Shown here one piece after another: positions 12,401 through 37,159 of a stretch of DNA of 64,000 nt. The notes under the pieces were generated by a model, which saw only the letters and a program-made list of their open reading frames with translations, did no database searches and had not been told where the DNA came from. The DNA is taken from sequence record OQ718158.1. One strand, written 5' to 3'. Each line of letters starts with the position of its first letter. The first letter of the stretch is position 1. The DNA is from Escherichia phage vB_Ec-M-J. The position numbers and the translations under genes are program-made.

Positions 12401-12428
12401 CATTTCATCGAAACGAGAGGATGAATAC

Positions 12429-12944: not shown

Positions 12945-12982
12945 AGGTAAGGGTTAACTTCGGTCACACAAAGGAACATAAC

Positions 12983-13837: not shown

Positions 13838-13843
13838 AAAATA

Positions 13844-13879
13844 AAGGGTTGACTTCGGTCAGCCCTTTTTGCTATAATT
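13844..13879 (+). terminator. fused terminator-promoter module
   Basis: same 36-nt module as at 12366 and 15256. Confidence 0.65.
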
Positions 13880-13904
13880 ATTTCATCAACTGATGAGGTA
13901 ACAA

Positions 13905-15249: not shown

Positions 15250-15255
15250 AACAAA

Positions 15256-15290
15256 AAGGGTTGACTTCGGTCAGCCCTTTTTGCTATAAT
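15256..15290 (+). terminator. fused terminator-promoter module
   Basis: same module; GCTATAATCATTTCATCAACTGATGAGG continues to RBS. Confidence 0.65.
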
Positions 15291-15318
15291 CATTTCATCA
15301 ACTGATGAGGATAACGAA

Positions 15319-16089: not shown

Positions 16090-16156
16090 TTACATGTATT
16101 GACAGCACTACACTATGGTAGTACTATAACTTAATATTCACCACCGGAGATACGAT

Positions 16157-18596: not shown

Positions 18597-18603
18597 TAAA
18601 AAA

Positions 18604-18626
18604 TCCAGTACTATAATAGTACTGGA
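18604..18626. terminator. bidirectional hairpin between convergent genes
   Basis: TCCAGTACTATAATAGTACTGGA in A/T-rich context. Confidence 0.55.
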
Positions 18627-18632
18627 TTAATT

Positions 18633-19757
18633 TTAATTATCTAAGCCACCAATTACACTGAACTGTGTGGTAACGTCTGAACTATTATCTATGTAAGTTC
18701 TTCGACCAACATAATATAGTTGTCCTTTTGCTTGAATAAAAGTTACGGTCCCTGTATTGAATGTTATAATATCATTGTATGTAATGTCAGGTGGTAGTGC
18801 TGCTGATAATGCAGTAACAGCACTTAATGCAGCACTAGCACTACCATTTATACCAGCAGCAATACTACCAGTACCATAGAACTTATTATCTTTACCAATG
18901 AATACGTTGGCTGATGCTTGTGTAGCTGATGTTATTGCCTTACCAATTTGGAATGCGGTTCCTATGGTGTATGGTGTGCTCCTGGCTGCGTCTATGCTTT
19001 GTGTATATCCATCCCCTAGCTGACCATTAACTTTGTCACCACATGAGTATAGAGTACCATTGAGGCTGTATATGATCCCACGGTTAGAGAAGCTAACAGC
19101 TTCTGCATTAGTCCATACTGGTGCGGTGTATGAGTTTACACGACTAGCGGTAGTTCCTAGACCTAGTATACCATATGTGTTATCACCACATCCAAACCAT
19201 TGTCCAGAACTGTTTTGATAGAACACTGAACGTTCTGTTGATTCCATGCGTACAGCATCCACAGCACCACTTTTAACGAACGAAGTGGATGAGGATGTAG
19301 TACCAGTACCCAATGCACCATAAGTGTTTGTACCAATCGCATAGATTGATCCTAGTGGTGTCATAACACGTATGCAGTTATATCCCAATTGAACTTTACA
19401 TTCAAATAGGTTGTCCCATATTTCAGGAACAGCAGAAAATAAATTTGTAATTTCGAACCATGATGTTGTCGAACCAGTTAATCCTATACTGCTTTTGTTT
19501 CCTAAAATGAAAACAGTTTTGTCCTTCTTAATTATCCATGATGATAGAAAGCCTATCTCACAGCTATGAACATTTGATTCGATTTGGGTAATATAATACT
19601 TAACGGTGTTATCACCCATAAATGCCGCAGCACCAGATGCAAAAAGGTTTCCAGTTTGTTTATTTAAAATGTAGTTATTGTTTCCATATACACTAACATC
19701 ATAAGAACTTTCTTGTTTTTCGTTCCCATAATCAAATAACAATACGAAAGGTAACAT
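18633..19757 (-). CDS. beta-propeller protein, RCC1-like repeats, divergent leader MLPFVLLFDYGN
   Basis: 374 aa; G/S/T/N-rich; motifs YGALGTG, YGILGLG, NGQLGDG. Confidence 0.75.
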   Translation of the reverse strand: MLPFVLLFDYGNEKQESSYDVSVYGNNNYILNKQTGNLFASGAAAFMGDNTVKYYITQIESNVHSCEIGFLSSWIIKKDKTVFILGNKSSIGLTGSTTSWFEITNLFSAVPEIWDNLFECKVQLGYNCIRVMTPLGSIYAIGTNTYGALGTGTTSSSTSFVKSGAVDAVRMESTERSVFYQNSSGQWFGCGDNTYGILGLGTTASRVNSYTAPVWTNAEAVSFSNRGIIYSLNGTLYSCGDKVNGQLGDGYTQSIDAARSTPYTIGTAFQIGKAITSATQASANVFIGKDNKFYGTGSIAAGINGSASAALSAVTALSAALPPDITYNDIITFNTGTVTFIQAKGQLYYVGRRTYIDNSSDVTTQFSVIGGLDN

Positions 19758-19834
19758 GATAAAATCTCCTTGTGTTATACTTTATTTAATCATTTTATAA
19801 TGTACAATTTTACAGCGATTTAATTGAGGTACTC

Positions 19835-20485
19835 ATGAATAAAAGAAGTAAGTTCTATCAAGAATATTTCACTAAACAGAAACGATTCACAAAAAAATAC
19901 TTTACATCATCCCACCGACCAGTTGCAAGTTACAAACGTCCTAATACTAACTATCTTACTGGTGGCAAGTTTAGTGCAAAGTTCGAATTACTTATGCGTG
20001 AAAAGAATATCAAGATGCATTACGCAGAGACAAGAAAAAACTCATCAATTATTTGTTCTGATTTTCTTGAGTACGGTTGCTTAACTTATAAATTCAATGA
20101 TGTATATTTGTATATTGATGTTGATTGTAACAGTACTCGTATGTTTGAGATTTCAATTCACCCAAATCACAACCGTTATATAAACATTAACTTGGTTGAT
20201 AAAGTACTGATTGGTATATCTAGTACTGATGGTGGTGGATTTGAATTTATTGCTTCAAAATATGATGAAGATTTCGTACTTTACCCAGTACTTGATGATG
20301 TGAAAGATATTCTCAATTCATTAAAAGGAAGTCAATACAAATTATCTGAAGAACAGCTATTTCAGTACTCACTTATTCATGATGATATCGAGATATACTT
20401 AGAGTGTGCGAGAATCTTGGAGTATCTTTATAATGAACTAACAACAACTGGTAAAGTGACAGCATTCACATTATATAATATGTAA
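19835..20485 (+). CDS. hypothetical protein (plus-strand gene embedded in propeller array)
   Basis: 216-aa ORF flanked by AGTACT hairpins on both sides. Confidence 0.55.
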   Translation: MNKRSKFYQEYFTKQKRFTKKYFTSSHRPVASYKRPNTNYLTGGKFSAKFELLMREKNIKMHYAETRKNSSIICSDFLEYGCLTYKFNDVYLYIDVDCNSTRMFEISIHPNHNRYININLVDKVLIGISSTDGGGFEFIASKYDEDFVLYPVLDDVKDILNSLKGSQYKLSEEQLFQYSLIHDDIEIYLECARILEYLYNELTTTGKVTAFTLYNM

Positions 20486-20493
20486 AAGAAAAA

Positions 20494-20512
20494 GCCAGTA
20501 CATAGTACTGGC
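20494..20512. terminator. bidirectional hairpin between convergent genes
   Basis: GCCAGTACATAGTACTGGC flanked by A and T runs. Confidence 0.55.
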
Positions 20513-20518
20513 TTTATA

Positions 20519-21652
20519 TTAAACTGGTGGAGAATTATATGGCTCAAATTTATAAGTTGTCGTAGCAGTACCAGCAATGGCGTTGTTAGCTAGTATGTAC
20601 ATAGTCCTATAGTCGATTACTACCACAGTAATACTACCACCAAAAGCATAGTCTGTTATGTTATTAGTGTTGAATGGTAAATTAGATGAACTGGTCCATG
20701 TATTAGCTGTTGTGCTATTTGTACCATTGGAATAGCCGACACTAGATGCACCAGTTGTCCATAAGTTTCCATCATTGAACAACGATACATGGTTAGCTGT
20801 ATATGATTTATTAGGTATAGAACTATCAATTGGCGTATTCCAAACTTTAGTAACCCATGTTGTGACGGCTGTATTATTAGTAACACCATTACCTAACGAA
20901 CCATTTATTGGTATACCTCTTATATAAGAAGTGTTAGTACTAGGGTCAACATATCCAAATGTATATGTATCAAATGCAAATTGAAAACAATCAGAACTCG
21001 GTAATGTGTACAGTAATGTATATGAAGACGTGATTATTGATGAATTTGTACCGTTCACGCCTTGGTATAAAATACCACTACCCAATATTTGATTATTATT
21101 TTTTGTTATAGCAGTCATAGATGGATATGTTTTTACTTCACGCACATCATTAGTTACATATGTTTGTGTTGATAATGCAACATTACTACCATTACCAATA
21201 ACACCTGTATTTGCACCGCTTCCATAAAGTGAACCATCATTCAAAAGTACCATTGTGGCATTACTATTTCCAGTAATTGTTTTAATATTACTAACATCCA
21301 CCGCAGCAAATACAGTTGATGTTAAATCAGTGAAACGTGTATAATGTGATGTTGTGCCATTGATTGGTGTCGCAAAACCAGAATACAAAATTCTATTTTC
21401 TTTGGTAATAAGGAATGTTCCAGTAACACCGTTTGAATGGATATCAATAATATTATCGCCCATTAATACCCAATCACTTACGAATGTTGTACCAGCACCC
21501 AACCCATATGTCGTATTGTATCCACGTCCATACACTCTACCATCACTGAGTAATGTTACCACACATTGACCACCACCACCAAGGATAACTTTTTGGATAG
21601 TACTCTTTACTTTTATATTCCCGTACTTAACCATTCTTGCAAAAGGTAACAT
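20519..21652 (-). CDS. beta-propeller protein, RCC1-like, leader MLPFARMVKYGN
   Basis: 377 aa; conserved leader and upstream cassette with AAGGAGG RBS. Confidence 0.8.
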   Translation of the reverse strand: MLPFARMVKYGNIKVKSTIQKVILGGGGQCVVTLLSDGRVYGRGYNTTYGLGAGTTFVSDWVLMGDNIIDIHSNGVTGTFLITKENRILYSGFATPINGTTSHYTRFTDLTSTVFAAVDVSNIKTITGNSNATMVLLNDGSLYGSGANTGVIGNGSNVALSTQTYVTNDVREVKTYPSMTAITKNNNQILGSGILYQGVNGTNSSIITSSYTLLYTLPSSDCFQFAFDTYTFGYVDPSTNTSYIRGIPINGSLGNGVTNNTAVTTWVTKVWNTPIDSSIPNKSYTANHVSLFNDGNLWTTGASSVGYSNGTNSTTANTWTSSSNLPFNTNNITDYAFGGSITVVVIDYRTMYILANNAIAGTATTTYKFEPYNSPPV

Positions 21653-21696
21653 AATTCCCTCCTTTATTCTTTATACTATATTTAATCAAAAAGAAA

Positions 21697-21715
21697 AGCC
21701 AGTACTCTGTACTGG
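21697..21715 (-). terminator. inter-cassette terminator hairpin of propeller array (representative)
   Basis: GCCAGTACAGAGTACTGGC followed by TTTTCTTTTT on minus strand; same design between most paralogs. Confidence 0.6.
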
Positions 21716-21722
21716 CATTATT

Positions 21723-22883
21723 TTAAATTGGTGAATCTTCAACAAATATAGTACTAGCAGTACCACCAGATACTAGGTTAGTACCACTTGAATATATTTT
21801 GTTTCCATCTGTCATATATGTTTTACCATAGCAACTTTGGATTTTAACATCTTTGAAATTCAAATCAGGAGTAATAGATTTAGTGTAAGTTAATACGTTA
21901 GTAGTTGAACCTGTACTTAATTGTCCATAGTATGAAGTCGCTGAGTTATTACCAGCAACGTATACACCTGTGTCAGTAATAACAAAGTTAGAGTAATATC
22001 CGTACCCATATCCTATATCTAATATATTTCCTTGTGGTTGATTTGCCACAACAGTTGTCAATATGTTGGTTGATGCTGCTGTATTAGTAGCAGCCTGTCC
22101 ATATGATTGGTCACCACCAGTATACACAGTAACAACAGACGTACTATTGTTTCTAGCAATACCTTGAACCATACCATTAACAGTACTTATAAATGCTATA
22201 GTACTAACAGTTGCTGGTAATCTATCTGATAATGCGAATACATTATAAAAACTCACGGTTGAAGTACTGTTAGTATCACCCTTAACTTCACCTGTGTAAT
22301 ATAGTCTACCACTTTCGGCAATAAACGAACACATGTTTATACCTGCAATAATCCTTTTCGGAACCGCACCACTTGGTATAATTGATTGTACTAAAGTAGA
22401 GAAACTGTTAGAATAAGAAGCATTCCCAAGCTGCCCTCCTGTGTTATAACCACCACTCCAAATTGTCCCATTACTCATAAGTATTGAAATGAAGTTATTC
22501 CCTAGTGATATTTCTGAAATTGTTCCTTGGGAATTAACTTGATTAATAACAGTTTGCATAGAAGTCCATGCATTAACAGATGATGTACCCATACACACAT
22601 TGTATTGTCGCCCTGTGTATTGATATGTACCATCTGATTTGTGAATCATTGTAGCATACTGACCACACCATACATCAATGACATCCGATGCAGTTACTGT
22701 CCATGATGTTCTGGTTGTATTGTCTCCTAAACCCAACTGACCACTTGAATTGGAACCACGGGTATATAATTTACCATTACTACCCAATACCATAACCCAG
22801 TTATACCCTGCAACTAATTTTTTAATGGCAGCAGGGGATGGTGCAATGTTCCCGTAATCAAACAATCTTACAAAAGGTAACAT
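21723..22883 (-). CDS. beta-propeller protein, RCC1-like, leader MLPFVRLFDYGN
   Basis: track ORF trimmed to MLPF start (AAGGAG RBS); motifs SGQLGLGDN, GGQLGN. Confidence 0.8.
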   Translation of the reverse strand: MLPFVRLFDYGNIAPSPAAIKKLVAGYNWVMVLGSNGKLYTRGSNSSGQLGLGDNTTRTSWTVTASDVIDVWCGQYATMIHKSDGTYQYTGRQYNVCMGTSSVNAWTSMQTVINQVNSQGTISEISLGNNFISILMSNGTIWSGGYNTGGQLGNASYSNSFSTLVQSIIPSGAVPKRIIAGINMCSFIAESGRLYYTGEVKGDTNSTSTVSFYNVFALSDRLPATVSTIAFISTVNGMVQGIARNNSTSVVTVYTGGDQSYGQAATNTAASTNILTTVVANQPQGNILDIGYGYGYYSNFVITDTGVYVAGNNSATSYYGQLSTGSTTNVLTYTKSITPDLNFKDVKIQSCYGKTYMTDGNKIYSSGTNLVSGGTASTIFVEDSPI

Positions 22884-22896
22884 TTTTTTCTCCTTA

Positions 22897-24045
22897 TTAT
22901 ATTGATGGCATATCCAACACATATGAGTTGCTAGTAATTGATGAATATGTAGAATTTAAACCTGTACTATAAACATAATCACCTGCCCATAAGAATGTTC
23001 TATCCAATGTTGTATGTATTTCAATATCATCATATGATGATAATGATATTTGTGCTAGTGTATATGTAGTAGCATCAATGTTTGAACCAATACCCAAAGT
23101 ACCATTGTATTGTGATTGGGAGTTTTGACCAGTTGCATATATACCAGATTTGGTTATTAAATGCTGATTGTACATTGACGTACCTTTAAACAATTTAATT
23201 AAATTAGAGTTAGGTGTAGTTATTGGTGCAGGAGCAAGTATTGTTGTTGTAGTGCCACCATCACCTAATTGTCCATATCGTTGGTAACCACCAGCGTATA
23301 CCTGTTTAACTCCAGCCGTAGTTTCAATAATAAAGAATGAACCATAGCCAGTAGTATTAAAGTCTATAATTTTATTTGTACTCAAACCAACATTATATCT
23401 AGTAAATGTTGTTGCATTTGCTGAACCACCAGCATTCCCACCTACCATTTGCCCACTATAATAAAATGCTCCAGTACTGTCAGTATAAGCCATACAGTTC
23501 TCACTACCATAGATTTTTACTGGTGTACTGGGGAAACTAGAGGTTATATTCACACATGTATTATATTTTGCAGTAGTTCCAGTAATTTCACCATTGTTGT
23601 TTTGCCCAATTACCCAAACTGTGTCATCCGAACGTATAGCCATTGAGCTATAAAACGAGGATACAAATTGTTTAATAAAGGAACCAGGGAGAGAAGTAAG
23701 CATACTATTGATTTGTGCACTCACATTGGTCCATGTATTCACAACTGAATTGACACCTGCGGCTGCACCTGAACCAGAACTCCACCATGATTCATCATTC
23801 TTTTTAATCAATGTACCATTAGCAGAGCAATAAACATCAGCAACTGAACTATTAACTAATATCCATGCCCTCGCTGCTGTTGTATTACCAGTACCTAGCT
23901 GTCCTGCTGCATTACTACCCTTAGCATATAAATCTCCATTCTGCGTTAAAAGCATAGCATGTTGGTATCCAGTTGACAATTTCTTTATTTTTGGTAATGC
24001 TGGTGCTTCATTTCCATAATCAAACATTCTAACAAAAGGTAACAT
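22897..24045 (-). CDS. beta-propeller protein, RCC1-like, leader MLPFVRMFDYGN
   Basis: 382 aa; motifs AGQLGTGN, YGQLGDGG. Confidence 0.8.
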   Translation of the reverse strand: MLPFVRMFDYGNEAPALPKIKKLSTGYQHAMLLTQNGDLYAKGSNAAGQLGTGNTTAARAWILVNSSVADVYCSANGTLIKKNDESWWSSGSGAAAGVNSVVNTWTNVSAQINSMLTSLPGSFIKQFVSSFYSSMAIRSDDTVWVIGQNNNGEITGTTAKYNTCVNITSSFPSTPVKIYGSENCMAYTDSTGAFYYSGQMVGGNAGGSANATTFTRYNVGLSTNKIIDFNTTGYGSFFIIETTAGVKQVYAGGYQRYGQLGDGGTTTTILAPAPITTPNSNLIKLFKGTSMYNQHLITKSGIYATGQNSQSQYNGTLGIGSNIDATTYTLAQISLSSYDDIEIHTTLDRTFLWAGDYVYSTGLNSTYSSITSNSYVLDMPSI

Positions 24046-24116
24046 AATTCCCTCCTTTATTCATTATACTATATTTAATCAAAAAGAAAAGCCAGTACTC
24101 AAGTACTGGCATTATC

Positions 24117-25295
24117 TTAAAATTGTGGTAGTTGGTATTCAGTTAATGTCCATGTACCTGTAACTGTTCCATTCGGGGACATCCCTGTGTAGTATAATTT
24201 GCCACCAGCGTATACAAATAATGCATTGTCATTAGCAGCAACCATCGAAGTTTCTGGATCAAATACTACAGAAATTGGTAATTGTGATTGAACAAATACT
24301 GACGCATTGGTAGTTGAATTGTTACCAAGTTGTCCATAGTTGTTATACCCAGTACTGAAAATACGGCTACCATTTCTATATAATATACCCCTAGTACTTT
24401 GTGAATGTAGATCTATAAATTCAAAATCGGAAACATTAGTTAATTGCAAATAAGTACTTTGTGGAGTTAGTGCTGTCTTATTCGTATTGGTTGTAACTCC
24501 ATTACCTAATTGACCGTAAAATTGTGATCCTAAACCATATAGCGGATAAGTACCATCTGAATAAAGAACTATACCCAACATCTTATTATGTGAAAGAATA
24601 TCTATTGGATATTTCCCTGTACCAAAGTCGTATCTAGTCCAAGACGTTAATGTAGCCGACGCTGCCCCAGTTAACAAAGTACCAGTGGTAGTTGTGCCAC
24701 ATCGCCACGCTGAATTATCATTCTTAATTATCCAAGTTGGACTATTAAAAAATGAACTAACCTTTTTAACATTAATATTGACCTGGGTTAATTCTGTAAG
24801 CATTGATGAACTTGAACCCAACTCATATGTGGAGTTATTACCTATTGCATAAAGAACCCCACTATTTGTTAGTACAAACAAATTACGAACATTAGGATAT
24901 ATCTCTTTAATATCATCAATATTAATACCCGAAAAATAAGAAGTACATTCCACAAAGGTAGTACTTTGTACTTCACTCGATGCACCTGTCCAGGTGTTCC
25001 ATCCTGCATAATAAAATTTATTATCATTAGTCTGTACTAAGCTATATGAAGAGTTCCTAGTGCACCAGAAATTTTTCACATTTTGCATTAATCGAACCCA
25101 TGATGTCTGTGTTGTAGTATTACCCAGTCCGAAAATACCAGCATTGTTTCCACCGATACCCCACAAATCACCGTTACTATACTGTAGCATCAATGTATTG
25201 TTGGTGAACGCTGATGGTGCTTGCATTTTAATTACATTAGCTGATGGTGCAGGTTTAATATTCCCGTACTTAACCATTCTTGCAAAAGGTAACAT
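24117..25295 (-). CDS. beta-propeller protein, RCC1-like, leader MLPFARMVKYGN
   Basis: 392 aa; motifs YGQLGNGV, YGQLGNNS. Confidence 0.8.
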   Translation of the reverse strand: MLPFARMVKYGNIKPAPSANVIKMQAPSAFTNNTLMLQYSNGDLWGIGGNNAGIFGLGNTTTQTSWVRLMQNVKNFWCTRNSSYSLVQTNDNKFYYAGWNTWTGASSEVQSTTFVECTSYFSGINIDDIKEIYPNVRNLFVLTNSGVLYAIGNNSTYELGSSSSMLTELTQVNINVKKVSSFFNSPTWIIKNDNSAWRCGTTTTGTLLTGAASATLTSWTRYDFGTGKYPIDILSHNKMLGIVLYSDGTYPLYGLGSQFYGQLGNGVTTNTNKTALTPQSTYLQLTNVSDFEFIDLHSQSTRGILYRNGSRIFSTGYNNYGQLGNNSTTNASVFVQSQLPISVVFDPETSMVAANDNALFVYAGGKLYYTGMSPNGTVTGTWTLTEYQLPQF

Positions 25296-25370
25296 ATATT
25301 TTTCCTCCTTTATTCATTATACTATATTTAATCAAAACGAAATGCCAGCACTCAAGTACTGGCATTATTG

Positions 25371-26561
25371 TTATAGTTGTCTTGGAGTATCAAGTACATA
25401 TCTATTTGTACTAGGACCACCATCATCATAAGTTCCGGTTGAATATATATTTTTCATATCAGCAGTTAGGAAAGTACGTAACGACCCTCGATATATTTTT
25501 ATTTTATCATACATAGAATATGTTATTTCTGACGGCAATGGACATGCAGTAAATTTACCAATGGTAACATTAGAACCAACACCCAATGAACCAGCATAAC
25601 TACTCGCATTTAAACCTGTTGCATATACACCAGAACTCGTAACTAGTATACTAGATTGTGCTGGGTATCCAGTATGAATTGAATACAAAGTACCGGGTGG
25701 TAAGGTTGTACTATTATTTCCTAATACTGCTCGTGCTGTACTAGACGTAGTGTTATTACCCCATGCCCCATTATTGGCGTTCCCACCCACTAGGAACTGA
25801 CGTGCTCCTGTACTTGGATTCTCCACTAAAGCACTGACTGCACCAATTGTACATACAACATATTGTAATGTTTTTGTATATGTTGTACTTGGCTGATATA
25901 AAGTATATTGATTGTATGGAGTCCATGTATCAGTAGTACTTATACCTGATGTACTACCACCAATATATAAATTATTTTGTGTATCATAAAACATTACACA
26001 GCTATTTGTTGACTGTATTCGTGCAATATCAACATTAGGCGTGACAGCTTTTACAAATGATCCATCTGTTATTTGCTGAGTACTACCAGTACCATCAGCG
26101 AATTGTCTAGCCCCACTCCAACCAGTACTCCATATTGTATTATTATCCATTAAGAAAGTAAACCAAGTAGTACCTGCATACATCTGTTTAATTGAAGTAC
26201 CTGAACTTTGTGTGTACAAATTTTCAATATATTGGTTATAACTTAAAAATGATGTAGTACTAGTTTCTAAACCAATATGACTACCATATCCACAATAAAA
26301 ATAATTTAAGTCCTTATCTTGAACTAACAAAGTTCCTTGTGTCATCCAGCAATCTTTGACATTTTCTCTAATTAATGTCCACGACCTTACTGCATTATTA
26401 TTTCCGCGACCGAACTTCCCATAACTATTATTTCCTCGTGCGTATAGTTGACCGTCAGTATAAAGTACAACCACATCAGTATCAGTTGGTATTATTTTCT
26501 TAATTAGAAGAGGTTCAGGTGTGATATTCCCATAATCAAACAATCTAACAAAAGGTAACAT
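25371..26561 (-). CDS. beta-propeller protein, RCC1-like, leader MLPFVRLFDYGN
   Basis: 396 aa; conserved leader and cassette. Confidence 0.8.
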   Translation of the reverse strand: MLPFVRLFDYGNITPEPLLIKKIIPTDTDVVVLYTDGQLYARGNNSYGKFGRGNNNAVRSWTLIRENVKDCWMTQGTLLVQDKDLNYFYCGYGSHIGLETSTTSFLSYNQYIENLYTQSSGTSIKQMYAGTTWFTFLMDNNTIWSTGWSGARQFADGTGSTQQITDGSFVKAVTPNVDIARIQSTNSCVMFYDTQNNLYIGGSTSGISTTDTWTPYNQYTLYQPSTTYTKTLQYVVCTIGAVSALVENPSTGARQFLVGGNANNGAWGNNTTSSTARAVLGNNSTTLPPGTLYSIHTGYPAQSSILVTSSGVYATGLNASSYAGSLGVGSNVTIGKFTACPLPSEITYSMYDKIKIYRGSLRTFLTADMKNIYSTGTYDDGGPSTNRYVLDTPRQL

Positions 26562-26631
26562 ATTTTCCTCCTTTATTCATAATACTATATTTAACCAAAA
26601 AGAAAAGCCAGTACTTGATACTGGCGTAATG

Positions 26632-27774
26632 TCAATAAGCTTCCCACGGTAAGGGTGTCTTCCTAAATCCATACCTGGTTGTGGTCGCACCATCACCAGC
26701 AATGTATCGACCGATACCACATTGGTATAACTCTGTACTACTACATATAGCACCACCAATAGTACCACTACTCCACAGAATTATATTAGAATATGTTATT
26801 GGTAAATCACTACATTTAGTATATACACCAACGGTAGCAGTCCCACTAATACCACCAAACATACTTCGGTTAGCACCAGTATAATATATACCATCTGGAC
26901 TCATAAATGCAGAGGTGTAAGTTGTACTACAATCCACTGGACTTCTTATAGTATTAAGATCGCCTGGGTATGTCCTGACACCAAAGGTGTATACATTACC
27001 ATCAGTTGTAATACCATTACCTAACTGCCCACTGTTTTGTCCACCACATGTAAGCAACAATGCAGAACCAGAAACAATTGCAGTAGCATTATACGAAGTA
27101 CCCATCGCAATAGAAGCACCAGACAATAGTTTTGGAGTAACAATAGCTGTTGTATTACCCTGGCCTAATTCACCATTGATATTTCGTCCCCATGCGTATA
27201 TAGAAGTTGTATCCAATCGACATAGTACTGAACCATAACTAAACGTATATCGCATGTCAATTACCGCATTAGGCAAATTAACCTTAGTTGCAACACTAAT
27301 AACACCACCAGTAACACCACTGTTTGCGTTCATGTTACGACCATATGCATATAAAGAACCATCTGAAGTTTTAATATGCATCATACCATCTGTACAATAC
27401 AATGCATCTATACTATCCACTGCAACCGGACCCATACTGGTAGTTATATCGGTCCACCCAAGCGTGGTAGTACTGGAAATTAAGTTATTTCCGGCGTATA
27501 GTATTCTATTATTATTAGTAACTACAACTGTATATCTGGCAGTAACACCAATTAATCGAACATCAGTATATATCTTAGACCACGCACCTAATGAATTGGT
27601 GTTTGCATCCAAAAAGCCCAACTGCCCATCTGTATTGTATCCAATACCCCATACATCACCTGCACTGTCCAATAACACTTCATGTGAAAATCCAATCTTA
27701 AAATCTTTTATTGTAGGAACTACCGGAACTGGTGCAATATTCCCGTACTTAACCATTCTAGCAAAAGGTAACAT
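26632..27774 (-). CDS. beta-propeller protein, RCC1-like, leader MLPFARMVKYGN
   Basis: 380 aa; motifs DGQLGF, SGQLGNG, NGELGQGN. Confidence 0.8.
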   Translation of the reverse strand: MLPFARMVKYGNIAPVPVVPTIKDFKIGFSHEVLLDSAGDVWGIGYNTDGQLGFLDANTNSLGAWSKIYTDVRLIGVTARYTVVVTNNNRILYAGNNLISSTTTLGWTDITTSMGPVAVDSIDALYCTDGMMHIKTSDGSLYAYGRNMNANSGVTGGVISVATKVNLPNAVIDMRYTFSYGSVLCRLDTTSIYAWGRNINGELGQGNTTAIVTPKLLSGASIAMGTSYNATAIVSGSALLLTCGGQNSGQLGNGITTDGNVYTFGVRTYPGDLNTIRSPVDCSTTYTSAFMSPDGIYYTGANRSMFGGISGTATVGVYTKCSDLPITYSNIILWSSGTIGGAICSSTELYQCGIGRYIAGDGATTTRYGFRKTPLPWEAY

Positions 27775-27850
27775 AATTCCCTCCTTTATTCATTATACTA
27801 TATTTAATACAAAAAAGAAAAGCCAGCACTCAAGTACTGGCATTTTAATT

Positions 27851-28999
27851 TTAACGAGGTATAACTATTTTTTTGAATAATCCAGTATTTCCTGCATTTT
27901 CTTCTTCATATGGAATTGTACCCATACCAGCAGTTCTGCCACCATTCCCTGAACCATACAGTTCTCCATTCTTAATCATGAATGTTATCATATAACCATG
28001 TGTCATTTTATCATATGGAACTGGTTCAGTTATATTATTACATGCTCGCCATGTACTAATAACACTAGAGTTCGTTATACCATCACCTGATGCGTTTCCT
28101 CGACCAGCGAAATACCATATCCCACCTGCTCTAACGTGTGCTTCATAATTAGAACCACCTATGTAATCAATCGCAGTACTAGGAATACTAGAAGCTGGTA
28201 TCTTTGTGATTGTTCTAAGACTGTTAATAGTGCCATTAGTACCATCACCCAACTGTCCATATATTTGTGAACCGAATACATATAGCCCATCACTCTTTAA
28301 TACGTAATTAGCACTATATGCATTTTCTGAATTTACCTGTAATACTCCAGTAGTAACAGTAGTCAATGTGGTGGTAGTTGTACCAGTCGAACCAATACTA
28401 GATTTATTCCCACTGTACTTTAATATTCCATTATTGTATAATACAAATGAAGCATTATCAGCGGTTACACCAATATCTTTAACATCAACTTCTGGTGTCA
28501 ATGTCAGTACTGATACTCTTTGGTCAACAGCCCCAGTAAAAACTTCACCGTTGTTATTGTAACCCATCTTATATAATTTATTATCTATTGTTAATAATAA
28601 TGTAACGCCGTTTCCTATAACTATTTTACTATATGTGTCATTCACATCATCAAAAATACCAAGTATTTCTGTCCATACACGATAAGTAGTATTAACACCA
28701 CGATAGATTTGAGCACCAGTACTCCACCATGTGCCATCATTTTTACGTACTAATATTCCATGTGTATTACCAGTAGTCCAAAATTCCTTTACATCAGTTA
28801 AACATAAAACCCACTCTTCAACTATAGTAGGAGAACTACTACCAGTACCTAATTGATAGTAAAAATTATGCCCTCTGCCATATAATCTTCCGTCTTCTAA
28901 TAAAATAAACACATTATTCTGTAAAACTTTTACCATCTTTATACCAACTGGCACAGGTGCTTCATTCCCATAATCAAACATTCTAACAAAAGGTAACAT
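27851..28999 (-). CDS. beta-propeller protein, RCC1-like, leader MLPFVRMFDYGN
   Basis: 382 aa; motifs YYQLGTGS, YGQLGDGT. Confidence 0.8.
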   Translation of the reverse strand: MLPFVRMFDYGNEAPVPVGIKMVKVLQNNVFILLEDGRLYGRGHNFYYQLGTGSSSPTIVEEWVLCLTDVKEFWTTGNTHGILVRKNDGTWWSTGAQIYRGVNTTYRVWTEILGIFDDVNDTYSKIVIGNGVTLLLTIDNKLYKMGYNNNGEVFTGAVDQRVSVLTLTPEVDVKDIGVTADNASFVLYNNGILKYSGNKSSIGSTGTTTTTLTTVTTGVLQVNSENAYSANYVLKSDGLYVFGSQIYGQLGDGTNGTINSLRTITKIPASSIPSTAIDYIGGSNYEAHVRAGGIWYFAGRGNASGDGITNSSVISTWRACNNITEPVPYDKMTHGYMITFMIKNGELYGSGNGGRTAGMGTIPYEEENAGNTGLFKKIVIPR

Positions 29000-29070
29000 A
29001 TTTCCCTCCTTTATTCATTATACTATATTTAATTCAAAAAGAAAAGCCAGTATCAAGTACTGGCATTATG

Positions 29071-30180
29071 TTATTTTGGTAAATCAATTTTAGTAAAGAC
29101 TGCAACATCCTCGCTTGCCCCTGGGATGGCGTAATAAGAACCAGTACTATATACATCTCCGTCTTTTGTTAATATTGAAGTTAAACCATCACTAAAAAGA
29201 ACATCACTAATCTCACTAACTGAAACAGGTAATTGTAAATTAGTAGCACTATATATTGCACCAGTTTGAGAATTGTTTAATCCCAAACCACGGTTCGCCC
29301 CAACACCCTTCTGATATGTACTAGTAATTATAATTTGTGTAGCAGTATTTAATGCAGGTGAATTCGTCATAAACAACGGAGAACTATTAGGCAAAGAACT
29401 TACAGGAACTGCACGAAATGTAGTTGTATCTGAACTAAGAAAGTTTGGCGTTTGACCACATACGAAATATGATGTACCATTATAGTAATTAAATGCATTA
29501 CCACCTATAGCTGCATCTATTACTCCAGTACTACGTAATCCCCACGTGTTAATTTGTGTTCGGTTCCCCGTGCCATGCTGACCCCTGTCATTCCACCCAG
29601 AACTATATAACTTATTATCTAATGTAATATACATACTGTCATTTGAATTCGTCATTACTTTACGCACATTAGTAGCACATTGAGTTAATGTGTAAATTGA
29701 TGATGAACCAATACCTAAAGCACCACGATATCCATTAGCCCCTGCACCATAGAGTACTGAACTAGTGCTAAGTACAAATATTAAACCATACGAACATACT
29801 ATATCAGCAATTTCATTTACCGATAGTACACTCGTAAACCACGCAGTCCTATCAACTAATACAGTACTGTAAGAAGTCCCAGTAGAAGACGAAAACCAAT
29901 AAGTCTCACCAGCAGTCCATATAGTATTGTCACTCTTAATAACAACAACTGTACGATCACCAGCAAAAAAATTAGTAACTTCTGTACTCACTAATCTCCA
30001 TGAAGATACAGTGTTGGTATTACCATTTCCAGATTCACCACCTTGATTTCTACCTATGTAATATAAATCATGTGAATCAGTCAATAAGAATTGACCCTGT
30101 GTAGACGCACCAACTTTTATTATATTTTTAGGACCAGGTGTGATATTCCCATAATCAAACATTCTTACAAAAGGTAACAT
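29071..30180 (-). CDS. beta-propeller protein, RCC1-like, leader MLPFVRMFDYGN
   Basis: 369 aa; motif RGQHGTGN; only 10 nt from upstream paralog (co-transcribed). Confidence 0.8.
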   Translation of the reverse strand: MLPFVRMFDYGNITPGPKNIIKVGASTQGQFLLTDSHDLYYIGRNQGGESGNGNTNTVSSWRLVSTEVTNFFAGDRTVVVIKSDNTIWTAGETYWFSSSTGTSYSTVLVDRTAWFTSVLSVNEIADIVCSYGLIFVLSTSSVLYGAGANGYRGALGIGSSSIYTLTQCATNVRKVMTNSNDSMYITLDNKLYSSGWNDRGQHGTGNRTQINTWGLRSTGVIDAAIGGNAFNYYNGTSYFVCGQTPNFLSSDTTTFRAVPVSSLPNSSPLFMTNSPALNTATQIIITSTYQKGVGANRGLGLNNSQTGAIYSATNLQLPVSVSEISDVLFSDGLTSILTKDGDVYSTGSYYAIPGASEDVAVFTKIDLPK

Positions 30181-30190
30181 ATTTCTCTCC

Positions 30191-31321
30191 TTAATTTAAT
30201 AATGCCCCTGGCAAATCCACTTTGACGAATTGTGCATATGCTGAGGAATTTTGATCAAAGTTTGGTCCCAATCCATAAAATGAGCTAATGCCGTCTTCAT
30301 TTGTGTATATGATATAAACGTTCTTTACATCATTTCCGCATATAAATCGAATGTCTTTCGTTTGTGTTCCCGCTGGAACATTACGAAGGTTCACAACGCC
30401 ATTACTTGCATTGTTATCAGCCGACGCAATTGGTAATTGATTTTGACCATATTGACCACGCATATTTTTTGCATCTAAACCAAACACAGTATCTGATACC
30501 GCACCAACTTTCAAAAATGAACCAAAACTATTATTGAATGACTTTGGAAATGTACCACTATAAACACTTCTCCCATCTGATAATACCGCTGAACTGAATT
30601 TCCCGCTATTCGATATGGCAAATTCATTGTAAGGAAGTGTACCCATTTTGGTATATACAGAATATGAATTAGTGGAAGTATTATCAATAATCTTATTACC
30701 ATTATATCCAATACCATACTGGTATCCGTCTGCATCTTGAACTATACACAAAGGACCACTTGGGGTTTGTGTCAACGAAACAACACGTTCAACTTGTATA
30801 TCACCAAATGTATTTCTTCGCCATGTTCTATCTATTATAGTACTAGTATTACCCAAAGATAATGCCACACTATATAATAGATTGTTTTCAGTAAAAATGG
30901 CAACATAATATGCGTGGTTAATAACTTGCTTCATCCCAGCATCAATAACTTCCTGTGGAATATGATCAGTAACATCCAACCAATCAAGGTTAGATGATGC
31001 AATATCTGGAGTACTGAATTTGTCAAATCTAGTTGAGCCACAAACTAGCACTCTATCATCATTTGTCAAAGCCACTGTGCTAGTCTGCATATTAGAACTG
31101 AATGATTTAACATTACTAATGTTAGACTTGTACCAACCCTTATCAGCAGCACCCACCGTGAATCCGGTTCCCATTGATCCACTTGTACTTGTACCATAAG
31201 CCCACATCTCACCACTATATGTTAGTGCCATACAGTGGCTTCCATTTGCTTGGAAATCCTTTATACCAGTGGGAGCAACCACTGTATTCCCATAATCAAA
31301 CATTCTAACAAAAGGTAACAT
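30191..31321 (-). CDS. beta-propeller-like protein, leader MLPFVRMFDYGN
   Basis: 376 aa; same leader; variant upstream cassette. Confidence 0.75.
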   Translation of the reverse strand: MLPFVRMFDYGNTVVAPTGIKDFQANGSHCMALTYSGEMWAYGTSTSGSMGTGFTVGAADKGWYKSNISNVKSFSSNMQTSTVALTNDDRVLVCGSTRFDKFSTPDIASSNLDWLDVTDHIPQEVIDAGMKQVINHAYYVAIFTENNLLYSVALSLGNTSTIIDRTWRRNTFGDIQVERVVSLTQTPSGPLCIVQDADGYQYGIGYNGNKIIDNTSTNSYSVYTKMGTLPYNEFAISNSGKFSSAVLSDGRSVYSGTFPKSFNNSFGSFLKVGAVSDTVFGLDAKNMRGQYGQNQLPIASADNNASNGVVNLRNVPAGTQTKDIRFICGNDVKNVYIIYTNEDGISSFYGLGPNFDQNSSAYAQFVKVDLPGALLN

Positions 31322-31398
31322 AACTAATTCTCCAAATTCAAATAATTATAATGTATTTACAAAAAAAATACCAGCACATATTTCAGTACTGGTATCAT

Positions 31399-32580
31399 TT
31401 ATGGTAAAATGATAGATTGTAACGAACTCATACCCAATGCTGGAACACTAGCCTGTGGTGCTGGAGAATTCAATTTTGGTGATGAAACCGCATATGACAT
31501 TCCTGAACCCAAATCTGGATCAAAAACTACAGCACAATAATTCCCACTATATATAAGTCCATTCTTGTATCCTTGTGCACTTTGAATGCATTTCGTGAAC
31601 GTACCAATATCTGTAGTGGCATTTATTAAGTTCCTCCCACGATAACCGCAGGTGTATATGAAATTATCATCGCCTATGTACATACTAGAATCCCCAGAAG
31701 AACTACATAGATACGACATATAAGCACGCATGTTTTTAGGAGCAACTGACAATGTACCTGCATAGAATTTATTATTCGAACCCGTAATATCACCATCACC
31801 CAATGCACCAAAACTTCCCCAGCCAGTACCATAATATCTCTTATCACTCAAGAATATAATACAGTTGTTATTACACATCTTGACTTGATATATCAATGAA
31901 GGATCAACCCCAGGGAATGATTCAGTGTATGTTAGAACAGCCAGATCAGTACTAGCATTACATTGATGATATGTATTAGTACCAGCGGACAAGATTGTTC
32001 CATTAGCTAACAGAATTCTCGCAGTACCAGTACCAGCAGTACAAGCAACTGCACTTCCTGCACTTCCGGTGTATATTTGTCTGAAAGTAAAGAAACCAAC
32101 AGTTTTACTTCCCTGCCCACTCCAACCAGTATTATCAACTCCACACGCCCATACTGAACCATCTTGCATGATCATCATTACACCAAAGCGTTCTATTGAA
32201 ATATAAACAATCTTCGTTGTATCAACTGCACTAAATCTAGAAGTTATATCAGTCCATACCTTAACACTTACCGCCGTCGCACTGGAAGTAGGATCTTCAC
32301 CAGCTATCATTATCCTCCCATTGTTAGTAAGATACATTGTCTGACTATAACCAGTACTACAAAACTTAACACTATCAGTCTCTGGAACTTTTAACCACTC
32401 GTTGTAACGTGTTACGTTAGTGTTATTACCTAACTGATAATAGTTATTCATCCCAGATACATATAACACACCATCCTTTATTAAACTATAAGTCGCACTA
32501 TAGTCACTACAGGTATAACGTGTACCCACAGGTCGCTCAACGACGTTCCCATAATCAAACATTCTAACAAAAGGTAACAT
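31399..32580 (-). CDS. beta-propeller protein, RCC1-like, leader MLPFVRMFDYGN
   Basis: 393 aa; motif YYQLGNNT. Confidence 0.8.
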   Translation of the reverse strand: MLPFVRMFDYGNVVERPVGTRYTCSDYSATYSLIKDGVLYVSGMNNYYQLGNNTNVTRYNEWLKVPETDSVKFCSTGYSQTMYLTNNGRIMIAGEDPTSSATAVSVKVWTDITSRFSAVDTTKIVYISIERFGVMMIMQDGSVWACGVDNTGWSGQGSKTVGFFTFRQIYTGSAGSAVACTAGTGTARILLANGTILSAGTNTYHQCNASTDLAVLTYTESFPGVDPSLIYQVKMCNNNCIIFLSDKRYYGTGWGSFGALGDGDITGSNNKFYAGTLSVAPKNMRAYMSYLCSSSGDSSMYIGDDNFIYTCGYRGRNLINATTDIGTFTKCIQSAQGYKNGLIYSGNYCAVVFDPDLGSGMSYAVSSPKLNSPAPQASVPALGMSSLQSIILP

Positions 32581-32653
32581 AATAAAATCTCCGTAATTAA
32601 ATTATATAGTATTTACAAAAAATACCAGTACATATTTCAGTACTGACCTATTA

Positions 32654-33775
32654 TTAAAAGGGCAACGGTAACTCAGTAAAAGTACTTACGTCCGGTAAAC
32701 CATACATTGAATTAGCATCACCACAGTAATACCACTTCGTAGAATCATGTACCACCGATAAACGCTGTGCACATAACACTTCCTGTATGTCATTAAACAC
32801 CATCGGGACTAACTCATATGTATCCGCAAATGAAGATACACCACCACTCGCATGAAAAGTATTCGTCCCAGCATAAAATAACTGATTAGTGTTCTTACCC
32901 ACAGCAAATGTCATCAATATCCCATCATTCTCCCATAAAGAAGAAAACTTATCAACACTACCAGAAAGCTCTGTGTAAGTACTCGTAATGGCACTCGCAG
33001 CCGCCGCATTACCCATCTGTTTATTCAAGTTCTGTCCAGCAATAAAATATCTCGTGCGTGCACTAGAATCAGTATATAATAACCCAGTGTTCGTAGTCAT
33101 CATTCCAATGTCCTTAATCGTCATACCAGTCTGTGAATAACTTAGATACGAAGTTAAACTACCATTATTACCCAACGAACCGTTATCACTCATGCCACAA
33201 CGATGTAATATACCACTTGTATCAACGTAGATAGTACTAACTAAACTCGTATACAACTCTTGTACATTATTCGCAATAAACACAGCAGTCGCCTTATTAC
33301 TAACCCCACCAAATGATAGGTTATTATCAAATCCCTTAGCGTATAATTGATTATTAGTAGTCAATAATCCAATCGTGAAATAAGACATTTTCATATCCCT
33401 TACTGTACTCAAATCTACTGCCCCAAATTGGTGCGTAACATCTGTCCATGTGAAAATCTGTGCACTACCAACACCACCCGTTTCAAACCATTTGTCACCA
33501 CAGTACAATATGCGATTACCCTTAGTAAAGATAACTGTTACCAATCCACTACCACACGCAAACTTTACATCACTTCTAACCTTCGTCCAATCAAGTACAT
33601 AGGTAGTGGTGTTATTACCTATACCTAACTTGCCATAACGGTTATAACCACGCACCCACAAATCACCACTCTTAGTAATTAATAGTAATGCGTCTCCTGT
33701 ACTTATTATTCGAAATCCCGAACTAGGATCAGGTACTTCATTTCCATAATCAAACATTCTAACAAAAGGTAACAT
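32654..33775 (-). CDS. beta-propeller-like protein, leader MLPFVRMFDYGN
   Basis: 373 aa; conserved leader and cassette. Confidence 0.75.
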   Translation of the reverse strand: MLPFVRMFDYGNEVPDPSSGFRIISTGDALLLITKSGDLWVRGYNRYGKLGIGNNTTTYVLDWTKVRSDVKFACGSGLVTVIFTKGNRILYCGDKWFETGGVGSAQIFTWTDVTHQFGAVDLSTVRDMKMSYFTIGLLTTNNQLYAKGFDNNLSFGGVSNKATAVFIANNVQELYTSLVSTIYVDTSGILHRCGMSDNGSLGNNGSLTSYLSYSQTGMTIKDIGMMTTNTGLLYTDSSARTRYFIAGQNLNKQMGNAAAASAITSTYTELSGSVDKFSSLWENDGILMTFAVGKNTNQLFYAGTNTFHASGGVSSFADTYELVPMVFNDIQEVLCAQRLSVVHDSTKWYYCGDANSMYGLPDVSTFTELPLPF

Positions 33776-33848
33776 ATATCCCTCCTTTATTCATTATACT
33801 ATATTTAATCAAAAAAGAAATGCCAGTACTCAAGTACTGGCATAGTAT

Positions 33849-34976: not shown

Positions 34977-35045
34977 AATTCCCTCCTTTATTCATTATAC
35001 TATATTTAATCAAAAAAAGCCAGTATCAAGTACTGGCATATTAAT

Positions 35046-36194: not shown

Positions 36195-36206
36195 ATTTCC
36201 TCCAAA

Positions 36207-37112: not shown

Positions 37113-37159
37113 ATTTCCTCCTTTATTCATTATATCATATTTACCCCATAAACAAAACC

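Follow-up and report, generated by a model that had tools for sequence, protein, structure and literature searches.

A repeated terminator-promoter-RBS-like junction and a shared coding leader in the beta-propeller gene array of Escherichia phage vB_Ec-M-J

The junction unit described here is a spacer of about 70 nt that separates most genes of a beta-propeller gene array in Escherichia phage vB_Ec-M-J, and it is followed by a 36-nt coding leader that encodes a conserved 12-residue N-terminus (the tag). The analysis covered a stretch of 64,000 nt from sequence record OQ718158.1 (the window). All Megablast matches to positions 20400-26700 came from the PBECO4/121Q/phAPEC6 group (Asteriusvirus) of jumbo phages infecting E. 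coli or Salmonella. The top match was WPEC5, with 97% identity over 60% of the query, and no record reached 80% coverage, so the source phage is a relative of known isolates whose array differs from theirs. The 15 genes lie on the minus strand and were lettered A to O in the direction of transcription, A being a Kelch gene (ATG at 37112) and O the last gene (ATG at 19757). The ATGs of A to H are at 37112, 36194, 34976, 33775, 32580, 31321, 30180, and 28999, and those of I to O at 27774, 26561, 25295, 24045, 22883, 21652, and 19757. Two starts were set too far 5' in the program's list of open reading frames (ORFs) and were moved from 37202 (TTG) to 37112 and from 22922 to 22883 because of the ribosome-binding site (RBS) and the common start sequence. 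The genes are ~1.1 kb long, recur with a period of ~1.2 kb, and encode products of 301-396 aa.

Pfam searches found RCC1, RCC1_2, or RCC1-like-domain (WD40_RLD) in every RCC1-type paralog tested and Kelch families in gene A, giving 14 RCC1-like genes and one Kelch gene out of 15. Pairwise identity among the 15 proteins was only 14-31%. The AlphaFold2 (AF2) model of gene L had a predicted local distance difference test score (pLDDT) of 84 and a predicted template modelling score (pTM) of 0.85, and it aligned in Foldseek with UVR8 (4dnw)/RCC1 structures at E = 1.5e-24 and template modelling (TM) scores of 0.77-0.80. The gene bodies combine the Pfam repeats and the 6-7-bladed fold of the RCC1-like/Kelch propeller class.

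Coordinates are collected in Table 1. Eight junctions carry a type-1 unit, a near-identical spacer of 69-76 nt. The first-pass annotation had described this unit between M and N (21653-21722), where it is indeed present, and had listed seven further copies, each of which is exactly the spacer between consecutive ORFs; the repetition is far above chance. Read on the minus strand, the M>N spacer runs TAA, AATAAT, GCCAGTAC-AGA-GTACTGGC, TTTTCTTTTT, GAT, TAAATA, TAG, TATAAA, GAAT, AAGGAGGG, AATT, and ATG (21650-21652). The type-1 consensus has a 5' part composed of the stop codon, 6-13 nt, (A/T)GCCAGTAC, a loop of 3-5 nt, GTACTGGC(A/T), TTTTCTTTTT, and G(A/T)TT, and a 3' part composed of TAAATA, TAG, TATAAT, GAATAAAGGAGG, 4-7 nt, and ATG. 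AAGGAGG sits 4-7 nt 5' of the ATG, in keeping with its earlier reading as an RBS. Two junctions carry a type-2 unit with the stem ACCAGTAC..GT(A/G)CTGGT, followed by GTAAATAC(A/T)(T/A)TATAAT and a weaker GGAG. This TATAAT variant had been reported upstream of the genes at 31399 and 32654; it exists, at 31322-31398 and 32581-32653, but the position was reversed, since 31399 and 32654 are the low coordinates of genes that lie upstream of it, and the type-2 units stand before the genes with ATGs at 31321 and 32580. Three gene pairs had been said to lack the unit, and indeed just 10-13 nt with a Shine-Dalgarno (SD) sequence as the sole element separate them. The earlier account had missed a copy 5' of gene A, a degenerate copy 5' of gene O, and a relic at 20470-20484. 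The copy 5' of gene A has no terminator because it is located at the head of the array.

The 26-mer promoter/RBS core AAATATAGTATAATGAATAAAGGAGG had nine matches at <=3 mismatches in the window against 0.00 expected (100 shuffles), the ninth being at 37117-37142, 5' of the Kelch gene A. A strict hairpin pattern had four matches against 0.00 expected, and the looser pattern CAGTRY-N2-10-RYACTG had 14 against 0.8. Composites of terminator, promoter, and SD within <=~100 bp numbered eight full, two variant, and one half in the window and 7-16 copies per genome in relatives.

Table 1. Positions of array features in the window and cassette orders of the arrays compared
Feature	Position	Strand	Details
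Array of 15 tag-bearing beta-propeller genes, A-O	18633..37112	-	ORFs, Pfam, AF2/Foldseek
Type-1 unit, M>N	21653..21722	-	Hairpin 21698-21716, T-run 21688-21697, TAAATA 21679-21684, TATAAA 21670-21675, AAGGAGGG 21657-21664
Type-1 unit, K>L	24046..24116	-	Hairpin 24091-24110
Type-1 unit, J>K	25296..25370	-	Hairpin 25341-25366, 11 pairs
Type-1 unit, I>J	26562..26631	-	Hairpin 26607-26625, 'flop' orientation; -10-like hexamer TATTAT
Type-1 unit, H>I	27775..27850	-	Hairpin 27822-27841
Type-1 unit, G>H	29000..29070	-	Hairpin 29046-29064
Type-1 unit, C>D	33776..33848	-	Hairpin 33820-33843
Type-1 unit, B>C	34977..35045	-	Hairpin 35019-35037
Type-2 unit, E>F	31322..31398	-	ACCAGTAC..GTGCTGGT hairpin 31367-31396, T-run, GTAAATACATTATAAT, weaker GGAG RBS
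Type-2 unit, D>E	32581..32653	-	Hairpin 32624-32647, GTAAATACTATATAAT, GGAG RBS
Promoter/RBS half-unit 5' of Kelch gene A	37113..37150	-	GGGGTAAATATGATATAATGAATAAAGGAGG, no terminator
Degenerate promoter/RBS copy 5' of gene O	19758..19800	-	GATTAAATAAAGTATAACACAAGGAG
Gene N terminator and relic	20470..20515	-	Terminator 20491-20515 (11 pairs), then relic promoter-like TACATATTATATAAT 20470-20484
Short junction, L>M	22884..22896	-	RBS only (TAATAAGGAGAAAAAA)
Short junction, F>G	30181..30190	-	RBS only; accompanies cassette F in four genomes
Short junction, A>B	36195..36206	-	RBS only; accompanies cassette A in three genomes
36-nt leader, gene N	21617..21652	-	MLPFARMVKYGN (VK allele)
Leader, gene K	25260-25295		VK allele
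Leader, gene I	27739-27774		VK allele
36-nt leader, gene L	24010..24045	-	MLPFVRMFDYGN (FD allele)
Leader, gene O	19722-19757		FD or near-identical allele, MLPFVLLFDYGN
Leader, gene M	22848-22883		FD or near-identical allele
Leader, gene J	26526-26561		FD or near-identical allele
Leader, gene H	28964-28999		FD or near-identical allele
Leader, gene G	30145-30180		FD or near-identical allele
Leader, gene F	31286-31321		FD or near-identical allele
Leader, gene E	32545-32580		FD or near-identical allele
Leader, gene D	33740-33775		FD or near-identical allele
Leader, gene C	34941-34976		FD or near-identical allele
Leader, gene B	36159-36194		FD or near-identical allele
Leader, gene A	37077-37112		FD or near-identical allele
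Cassette order, window			A B C D E F G H I J K L M N O
Cassette order, WPEC5			B P E G I J Q X T Z L M a N O
Cassette order, BF17			A B H R E F G I J Q P X S L N O
Cassette order, G17			b R G U B S J Q T c V W
Cassette order, EC.P1			B P D E F G H J d Y N O
Cassette order, Turkey5			R G A S U e E F J I V Y f
Cassette order, phAPEC6			g S G R U J Q I T V P W

A terminator consensus scan of 18-38 kb found 21 sites against 8.3 expected, 15 of them in array spacers on the coding strand. Three of the four hairpins tested folded at -13.3 to -16.8 kcal/mol (z scores of -3.6 to -6.5), and the fourth (32624-32647) was weaker at -8.1 kcal/mol (z -1.6). Among 37 distinct hairpin variants from seven genomes, 258 of 259 stem cells were paired, with GC>AU compensation at one pair in three sequences and wobble changes at others. 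The stem begins 6-22 nt past the stop codon, and the run behind it, present on the coding strand only, always contains 8-10 T. The sequence features of a rho-independent terminator (a GC-rich stem of 5-11 bp, a loop of 3-8 nt, a U-run directly behind it, and a position just 3' of the stop) are all found. The public vB_EcoM_G17 record annotates the same hairpins as ARNold terminators, and a similar hairpin closes the array bidirectionally at 18602-18628. By every test available (fold energies, z scores, and stem pairing across the 37 variants), the hairpin with its T-run scores as a predicted intrinsic terminator of the upstream gene; the hairpin and T-run had been correctly recognised at first reading. 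An Rfam scan of 18-38 kb at E <= 1 returned four sub-threshold chance matches only. A regulatory mRNA structure over the RBS and coding leader was considered and rejected (-5.8 kcal/mol, z = +0.13, like shuffles); the long-range pairing in the 121-nt fold would be possible only in read-through RNA.

Two side observations concern the hairpins. The terminator hairpins occur in both orientations: GCCAGTACTTGATACTGGC was found 17 times and its exact reverse complement 3 times, and three other loop variants were also found both ways (6 vs 4, 4 vs 3, and 2 vs 2). The sites compared were 26607-26625 vs 29046-29064 and 35019-35037, plus the related loci L002-L007, and the pattern resembles a palindrome whose loop has been inverted in flip/flop fashion. 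The second observation is the abundance of the palindrome AGTACT, with 288 copies in the 64 kb (13x the base-composition expectation), most densely at 36-64 kb; CAGTACTG occurs 61 times in the window. AGTACT was found in terminator stems, beside the -35/-10 of early promoters (AGTACTTGCAA, TAGTACTGTATAAT), and in coding DNA.

A promoter-like element lies between the terminator and the RBS. Its invariant part, in 12/12 promoter-bearing junctions, is TAAATA-N3-TATAA (the I>J hexamer is listed as TATTAT); TAAATA is constant in all 12, and the last base of the second hexamer varies among T, A, and C. TAAATA-N3-TATAAT had 14 matches in the window against 3.8 expected, all in the array except for a single-mismatch match at 47691. 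The junction promoters have no -35 at 16-18 nt, where the T-run lies (best match 3/6), and no TG extension (TAGTATAAT). The clear sigma-70 promoters of the window read TTGACA/TTGCAA-N17-TATAAT and stand before dozens of small genes at 44-63 kb. Upstream of the virion-protein homologue at 5542, a terminator is followed by ACTATAAATATAGT. In phAPEC6, (T)ATAAATA/NTAAATA lies 25-55 nt 5' of the ATG of the major head protein, the scaffold, gp228, gp231, gp232, and gp234, and at the same position for gp238, gp244, gp245, and gp253; the upstream regions of gp231 and gp244 contain TAAATA-TTTC-TATA(TA)TAAT. Occurrences of TAAATA were counted in the -75..-12 region relative to the start. It was present upstream of 13/15 array genes and 13/20 phAPEC6 structural-module genes (9/10 of those module genes whose products were confirmed in virions by mass spectrometry, MS), compared with 0/47 early-type regions of the window and 0.6% of random 63-nt windows (Fisher test for structural module vs early-type regions, p = 3e-9).

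ATAAATA has been predicted as the late promoter of CBB and GAP32 and likened to T4 TATAAATA (PMC5259590). Against TATAAATA, the junction TAAATA gives 6/8 positions, the first two reading AT, TG, or GG and not TA. The PA5oct transcriptome paper was checked for an experimental late-promoter motif and lists only TATAATA/TTGAC promoters. Three marks of a T4-type late promoter were found here, namely, a missing -35, an association with late/virion genes, and a gp55-like sigma factor (by annotation in phAPEC6, where gp237c is annotated as a late sigma factor). On these motifs, the putative junction promoter groups with the late T4-type TATAAATA-like promoters of the lineage and not with sigma-70 promoters, and the late class also fits because the array products are virion proteins. 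The earlier call of a promoter-like -10 thus stands as regards a promoter-like element between terminator and RBS; the invariant core is, however, TAAATA-N3-TATAAT, of apparently late rather than sigma-70 type.

The repeat continues past the ATG. All 15 genes share their first 36 nt, encoding MLPFxRxxxYGN. In an ATG-anchored profile, mean pairwise identity was 0.81-1.00 at +4 to +33 and ~0.33 by +46. A conserved 5' coding leader had been noted before, and its extent had been missed: the 36 nt are found in 15/15 genes, those without a unit included. Residues 1-12 are near-invariant despite the low overall identity, and the Kelch protein shares the 12 with the RCC1-like proteins. In the AF2 model of gene L, residues 1-19 are without secondary structure (pLDDT ~50-70) and the propeller starts at residue 20.

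Pectobacterium phage CBB, of another genus, has a syntenic array of seven genes (three Kelch, two Laminin_G_3, and two unclassified), and 7/7 of these begin MLPF(S/P/A)(R/I)xxxY(G/A)N. Their leader codons differ synonymously (Pro3 is CCT, CCA, or CCG), which points to selection at the peptide level. An IMG/VR scan with a degenerate leader pattern found 21 loci on ~10 jumbo-phage contigs; CBB, GAP32, and 121Q are among them, as are four metagenomic contigs of 355-371 kb. Together the contigs hold 49 tag-initiated ORFs of 168-676 aa, a count that leaves out a few truncated, contig-end-cut, or probably chance ORFs. The 34 non-redundant tag ORFs outside 121Q comprised 11 RCC1-like, 6 Kelch, and 6 Laminin_G_3 proteins and ~11 without a Pfam match. 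Only M1, L2, P3, F4, Y10, and N12 are invariant across relatives. Many tag genes of relatives are preceded by GGGTAAATAC, so the TAAATA core accompanies the tag in different genera. The tag is not followed by a conserved prohead-protease site (L/I-x-E), residues 11-13 being G-N-(E/I/V/T/K). The leader is conserved chiefly as the code for a protein tag common to unrelated folds. As a separate observation, three more CBB genes (L012, L020, and L022; 219-254 aa) start MLPF...Y(G/A)N elsewhere in the genome, so that the tag is not limited to the array.

Several tag-bearing proteins have been detected in virions by MS, namely, gp003, gp005, gp006, gp007, gp009, gp010, gp549, and gp551 of phAPEC6 (8 RCC1-like; PMC7247149, Table 1), gp1 of GAP32 (PMC5259590), and CBB_548, 549, 551, and 552 (PMC5259590 supplement). 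The CBB supplements confirm virion status and contain no peptide-level N-terminus information. One possible reading, put forward tentatively, is that the tag is a universal plug that docks any binder domain at one virion site and that the plug DNA together with the unit is the recombination handle by which cassettes are traded. The domains behind such a plug may be RCC1/Kelch propellers, ConA-like lectin domains, and unclassified folds, and the shared site may be the 'hairy' fibres of phAPEC6/CBB.

The arrays of the window, WPEC5, BF17, G17, EC.P1, Turkey5, and phAPEC6 (partial) were compared. Cassette types were defined as clusters of tag-initiated ORFs at >=60% amino-acid identity and depend on that threshold. 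Escherichia phage CMSTMSU (L006, MH494197) was left out; its array is broken by many frameshifts, its record is marked UNVERIFIED, and sequencing frameshifts, not biology, are the likely cause of the fragmentation. The seven genomes contain more than 30 cassette types, with insertions, deletions, replacements, and true permutations, such as H moving from position 8 to 3, the Kelch gene from 1 to 3, and I-J becoming J-I. Array flanks were 98-99% identical between genomes. When the window array was aligned with the other arrays by BLASTN, 49/49 internal block ends fell at -74 to +52 of a cassette ATG, a zone that makes up ~10% of each 1.2-kb period, and no block ended inside a gene body. Block identity is mosaic; the I-J block is 92.5% identical to WPEC5 and 98.7% to BF17. 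Array content that stayed invariant across related genomes would have refuted the first-pass proposal; the seven arrays clearly differ in both content and order, with all breakpoints at a junction or leader. The proposal of cassette shuffling is supported by this and can be refined as to the crossover site.

For cassettes with >=2 different partners, junction class agreed with the cassette upstream in 71/73 cases but with the one downstream in only 48/65. Cassette G, for instance, has a short junction before it when its upstream neighbour is F or R, a type-2 junction when it is E, and a type-1 junction when it is S. Since junction class follows the upstream gene, the exchanged module would consist of body, stop, and 3' junction, with the crossover in the RBS and 36-nt leader, the sole homology on offer at short and type-2 junctions. 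The RBS and leader are thus the probable main crossover site, and the terminator/promoter unit would ride as the 3' tail of the upstream gene. The main leader alleles are FD, VK, and MN (MLPFARMMNYGN). Alleles are uncoupled from bodies, with types B, G, J, P, S, U, and Y differing in allele between genomes. The leaders of B, G, and J are 0.88-0.92 identical to leaders of their own genome vs 0.78-0.89 to the orthologue in the 121Q clade, which suggests some within-genome homogenisation of leaders.

Taken as a whole, the junction is likely to be a composite cassette of terminator, late promoter, and RBS that acts, with the tag leader, as portable homology. The GC-cored hairpin and TTTTCTTTTT would end the transcript of the upstream propeller gene in a rho-independent manner. 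TAAATA-N3-TATAAT, with no -35, would serve as a late promoter, probably read by the host RNA polymerase with a phage gp55-like sigma, and would start a short-leadered mRNA for the next gene, on which AAGGAGG would be the RBS. We infer termination and initiation at these sites, and the sigma factor used, from the motifs and their placement. The 12-residue tag, outside the propeller fold, may serve to direct or dock these binder-type domains, so that all of them reach one common virion site, internal or external. Two direct repeats, RBS plus leader (~45-50 nt, every gene) and unit plus leader (~110 nt, most genes), recur every ~1.2 kb and so offer portable homology to the phage recombination machinery. 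Crossovers at these repeats could delete, insert, replace, or reorder whole genes, each of which would stay in frame, tagged, and expressed. Given the exchanged module described above, a gene may land behind a type-1 junction, behind a type-2 junction, or directly coupled. The shuffling itself may have been selected for or may be a by-product of regulatory DNA being repeated.

Other explanations were weighed for the promoter and the hairpin. The element could be a host sigma-70 promoter with TATAAT as its -10, giving early or constitutive transcription, and TAAATA would then be incidental AT-rich sequence. TATAAT is a perfect -10 consensus at 9/12 junctions, and the first-pass annotation took the same view; yet neither a -35 nor a TG extension accompanies it, the clear sigma-70 promoters of the window never carry TAAATA (0/47), and it is TAAATA that is invariant while the end of the second hexamer varies. 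Relatives beyond the genus retain GGGTAAATAC and not TATAAT, the array products are virion proteins, and a sigma-70 scan of the array gave 84 sites vs 103 expected from shuffles, none of them at units. A sigma-70 identity is considered quite unlikely. For the hairpin, the alternative is a chief role in RNA processing or RNA stability, or as a DNA site bound by an AGTACT-recognising factor. Its stems are built around AGTACT, which is over-represented (288 in 64 kb) and also found in promoters and coding DNA, and the occurrence of loops in both orientations makes the loop sequence seem unimportant. The fixed place of the hairpin 6-22 nt past the stop, always with a T-run on the coding strand only, the pairing kept via compensatory and wobble changes, and the ARNold terminator call in G17 all speak for termination instead, as do the different GC hairpins with T-runs at the same position after other gene classes in the window. 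A processing or AGTACT-binding element is very unlikely to be the chief function.

As to the origin of the array, the spacers could be ordinary products of tandem duplication, kept alike only through selection on the terminator, promoter, RBS, and N-terminal peptide, with arrays that differ by differential loss and no special role in recombination. This agrees with the literature view of the array as a tandem duplication (PMC7247149), with protein-level selection on the leader (CBB leaders vary at synonymous sites), and with the use of the regulatory motifs at other genes of the lineage. Loss would leave subsets, whereas the order is permuted (H occupies place 3 in BF17 but place 8 in the window, and Turkey5 reads G..A..E F J I). 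The same body also occurs with differing leader alleles and upstream junction types, and adjacent blocks have different nearest relatives. Furthermore, the Asteriusvirus leader is conserved at synonymous sites too, with Pro3 as CCT in every cassette listed, a uniformity beyond what protein-level selection requires given CCT, CCA, and CCG in CBB, and differential loss itself would need recombination between the same repeats. Duplication and loss without a recombination role is held to be unlikely. The unit, ~70 nt long, repeated at many gene boundaries, and with an inverted repeat inside it, might also be a small mobile element inserted between genes, such as a miniature inverted-repeat transposable element (MITE), a homing-endonuclease target, or an integron-like attC. 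Such an origin is scarcely conceivable: terminal inverted repeats and target-site duplications are absent, the array contains no integrase, transposase, or homing endonuclease, the units have a single orientation in register with stop and start codons and no Rfam match, and the breakpoints lie at the leader and not at the hairpin.

Several points weigh against the composite-cassette explanation. The predicted terminator and promoter activities are argued from sequence and from association. The unit has TTAAATA/GTAAATA, unlike the ATAAATA/TATAAATA at most other late genes, and the good TATAAT 3 nt downstream leaves the sigma factor and start site uncertain. A virion role of the tag is inferred from its co-occurrence with MS-detected proteins, for which phAPEC6 peptide counts are low (1-5), and the gene L model was built on a shallow alignment of 14 paralogs. 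With regard to shuffling, the homogenisation signal is modest (0.878 within genome vs 0.850 across clades). Blocks end where homology ends, which means that gene boundaries are respected and individual crossovers are not located, and the 49 block ends are not independent because the compared genomes share ancestry.

The single interruption of the array is the plus-strand gene at 19835-20485 (216 aa; phrog_34359, function unassigned), which lies between N and O in all relatives having N-O and whose protein had no Pfam match. It was rejected as a conserved partner of the array, not being homologous to the DUF1190 gene at the equivalent CBB position. The relic promoter at 20470-20484 overlaps the 3' end of this gene, which suggests that the gene was inserted into a former array junction. 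A tRNA search of the 64-kb window found none.

Other repeated elements were observed in the window. Dozens of plus-strand ORFs of 60-130 aa at 44000-63900 each have a near-identical cassette consisting of AAAAGTACTTGCAA or TTGACA, N17, (G)TATAAT, a hairpin in the 5' untranslated region (GGGGAGAAnnnnTTCTCCCC), and an RBS; these look like genuine early cassettes of the promoter early stem-loop (PeSL) type. A third junction type on the plus strand at 1100-16100 reads GGGTTGACTTCGGTCAACCC, TTTTTGC, and TATAAT (e.g., 5' of 1170, 7804, 12429, 13905, and 15319), and its terminator stem carries a TTGACT -35 17-18 nt before the -10, so that terminator and promoter are nested. At 37150-37215, the head of the array adjoins a divergent sigma-70-like promoter (TTGACATCCTTTCAGTACTGGTGTACTAT) for the plus-strand gene 37215, the first in a series of small, probably early genes; a single ~100-bp region there is the point from which late and early transcription units diverge. 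An ORF-poor region of ~1.4 kb at 42200-43600, which has few annotated genes in relatives too, contains tandem repeats (the 24-mer GGCTAGACATCTGGACGGCTAAAC 3.3x at 43284-43362, the 8-mer CTAGACGG ~12x, and 22-mers at 42326-42396) and could be an origin, packaging, or terminus-related site.

In the literature searched, the RCC1-like paralogs of 121Q/PBECO4/phAPEC6-type phages appear only as puzzling 'DNA condensation proteins' that arose by tandem duplication (PMC7247149, PMC5259590). The array itself, the hairpins as terminators in one GenBank record, and the PeSL concept for early ORFan regions of T4-type phages are already on record. Literature searches on RCC1/jumbo phages, Asteriusvirus, 121Q, and 'MLPF' returned no description of the unit or the tag. 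What is new is a repeated terminator/promoter/RBS junction as candidate portable homology for a probably late-expressed virion-associated family in a jumbo phage, together with the continuation of the repeat past the start codon, where it encodes an N-terminal tag that does not depend on the fold and is found in several genera (Asteriusvirus, Mimasvirus CBB, GAP32, and metagenomic relatives). The 'chromosome condensation' paralogs may accordingly be recast as an exchangeable repertoire of tagged binder domains. If the plug reading is true, the array amounts to a plug-and-play display system of natural origin, by which the range of things the virion can stick to is diversified. The leader also suggests an engineering handle: with the 36 nt in front of it, a foreign domain should be late-expressed and, if the tag hypothesis holds, loaded onto the virion.

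Known systems resemble different parts of the array. The T4 capsid-targeting sequence (CTS) is an N-terminal peptide of ~10-12 residues on the internal proteins IPI-III and Alt. Like it, the tag is a short N-terminal peptide common to otherwise unrelated virion proteins; unlike it, the tag is without a conserved L/I-x-E site, and residue 13 is E, I, V, T, or K after G-N. Exchangeable tailspikes and fibres (K1-5, G7C, CBA120, and PhiK64-1) have conserved folded N-terminal anchors of ~100+ residues on fibrous trimers. They share with the array a constant N-terminus with a variable C-terminal binding domain, side-by-side alternatives, and an exchange hotspot at the boundary. The array tag differs from these folded adaptors in being 12 residues long, predicted to be unstructured, and attached to globular propeller or lectin-like domains.

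T4 late promoters are described as TATAAATA elements that depend on gp55 (Geiduschek and Kassavetis 2010, as cited in PMC5259590). The junction promoter is similar in being an AT-rich single element with no -35 at virion genes in a lineage with a gp55-like sigma factor; it differs in the T/G before TAAATA and the second hexamer, TATAAT, 3 nt downstream. No gp33/gp45 homologues are known in the lineage (PMC5259590), so the activation mechanism may differ from that of T4.

The closest comparison is with the PeSLs of T4-type phages, in which a repeated terminator stem-loop, early promoter, and SD bound indels and replacements and for which modular shuffling has been proposed (Arbiol et al. 2010, PMC2839356; Comeau et al. 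2014, PMC4122927). Both are composite intergenic cassettes of ~70-100 bp (terminator, promoter, and SD) present in many copies in a plastic region, both bound indels and replacements between close relatives, and both have been proposed as portable homology for expression-ready genes. The array promoter is of the late TAAATA class without a -35, whereas the PeSL promoter is a strong sigma-70-like early promoter with -35, -10, and AT-rich upstream region, a type that the junction units do not contain. The array units flank ~1.1-kb paralogous virion-associated propeller genes and not small ORFans, the repeat runs 36 nt into the coding sequence (the tag), and crossovers appear to fall mainly in the RBS and leader. 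PeSLs have been studied with reporters and mini-circles, and the array unit is known here from sequence. With the same anatomy and breakpoint pattern, a different promoter class, and an added coding extension, the array junction would work like a PeSL and is not classed as one.

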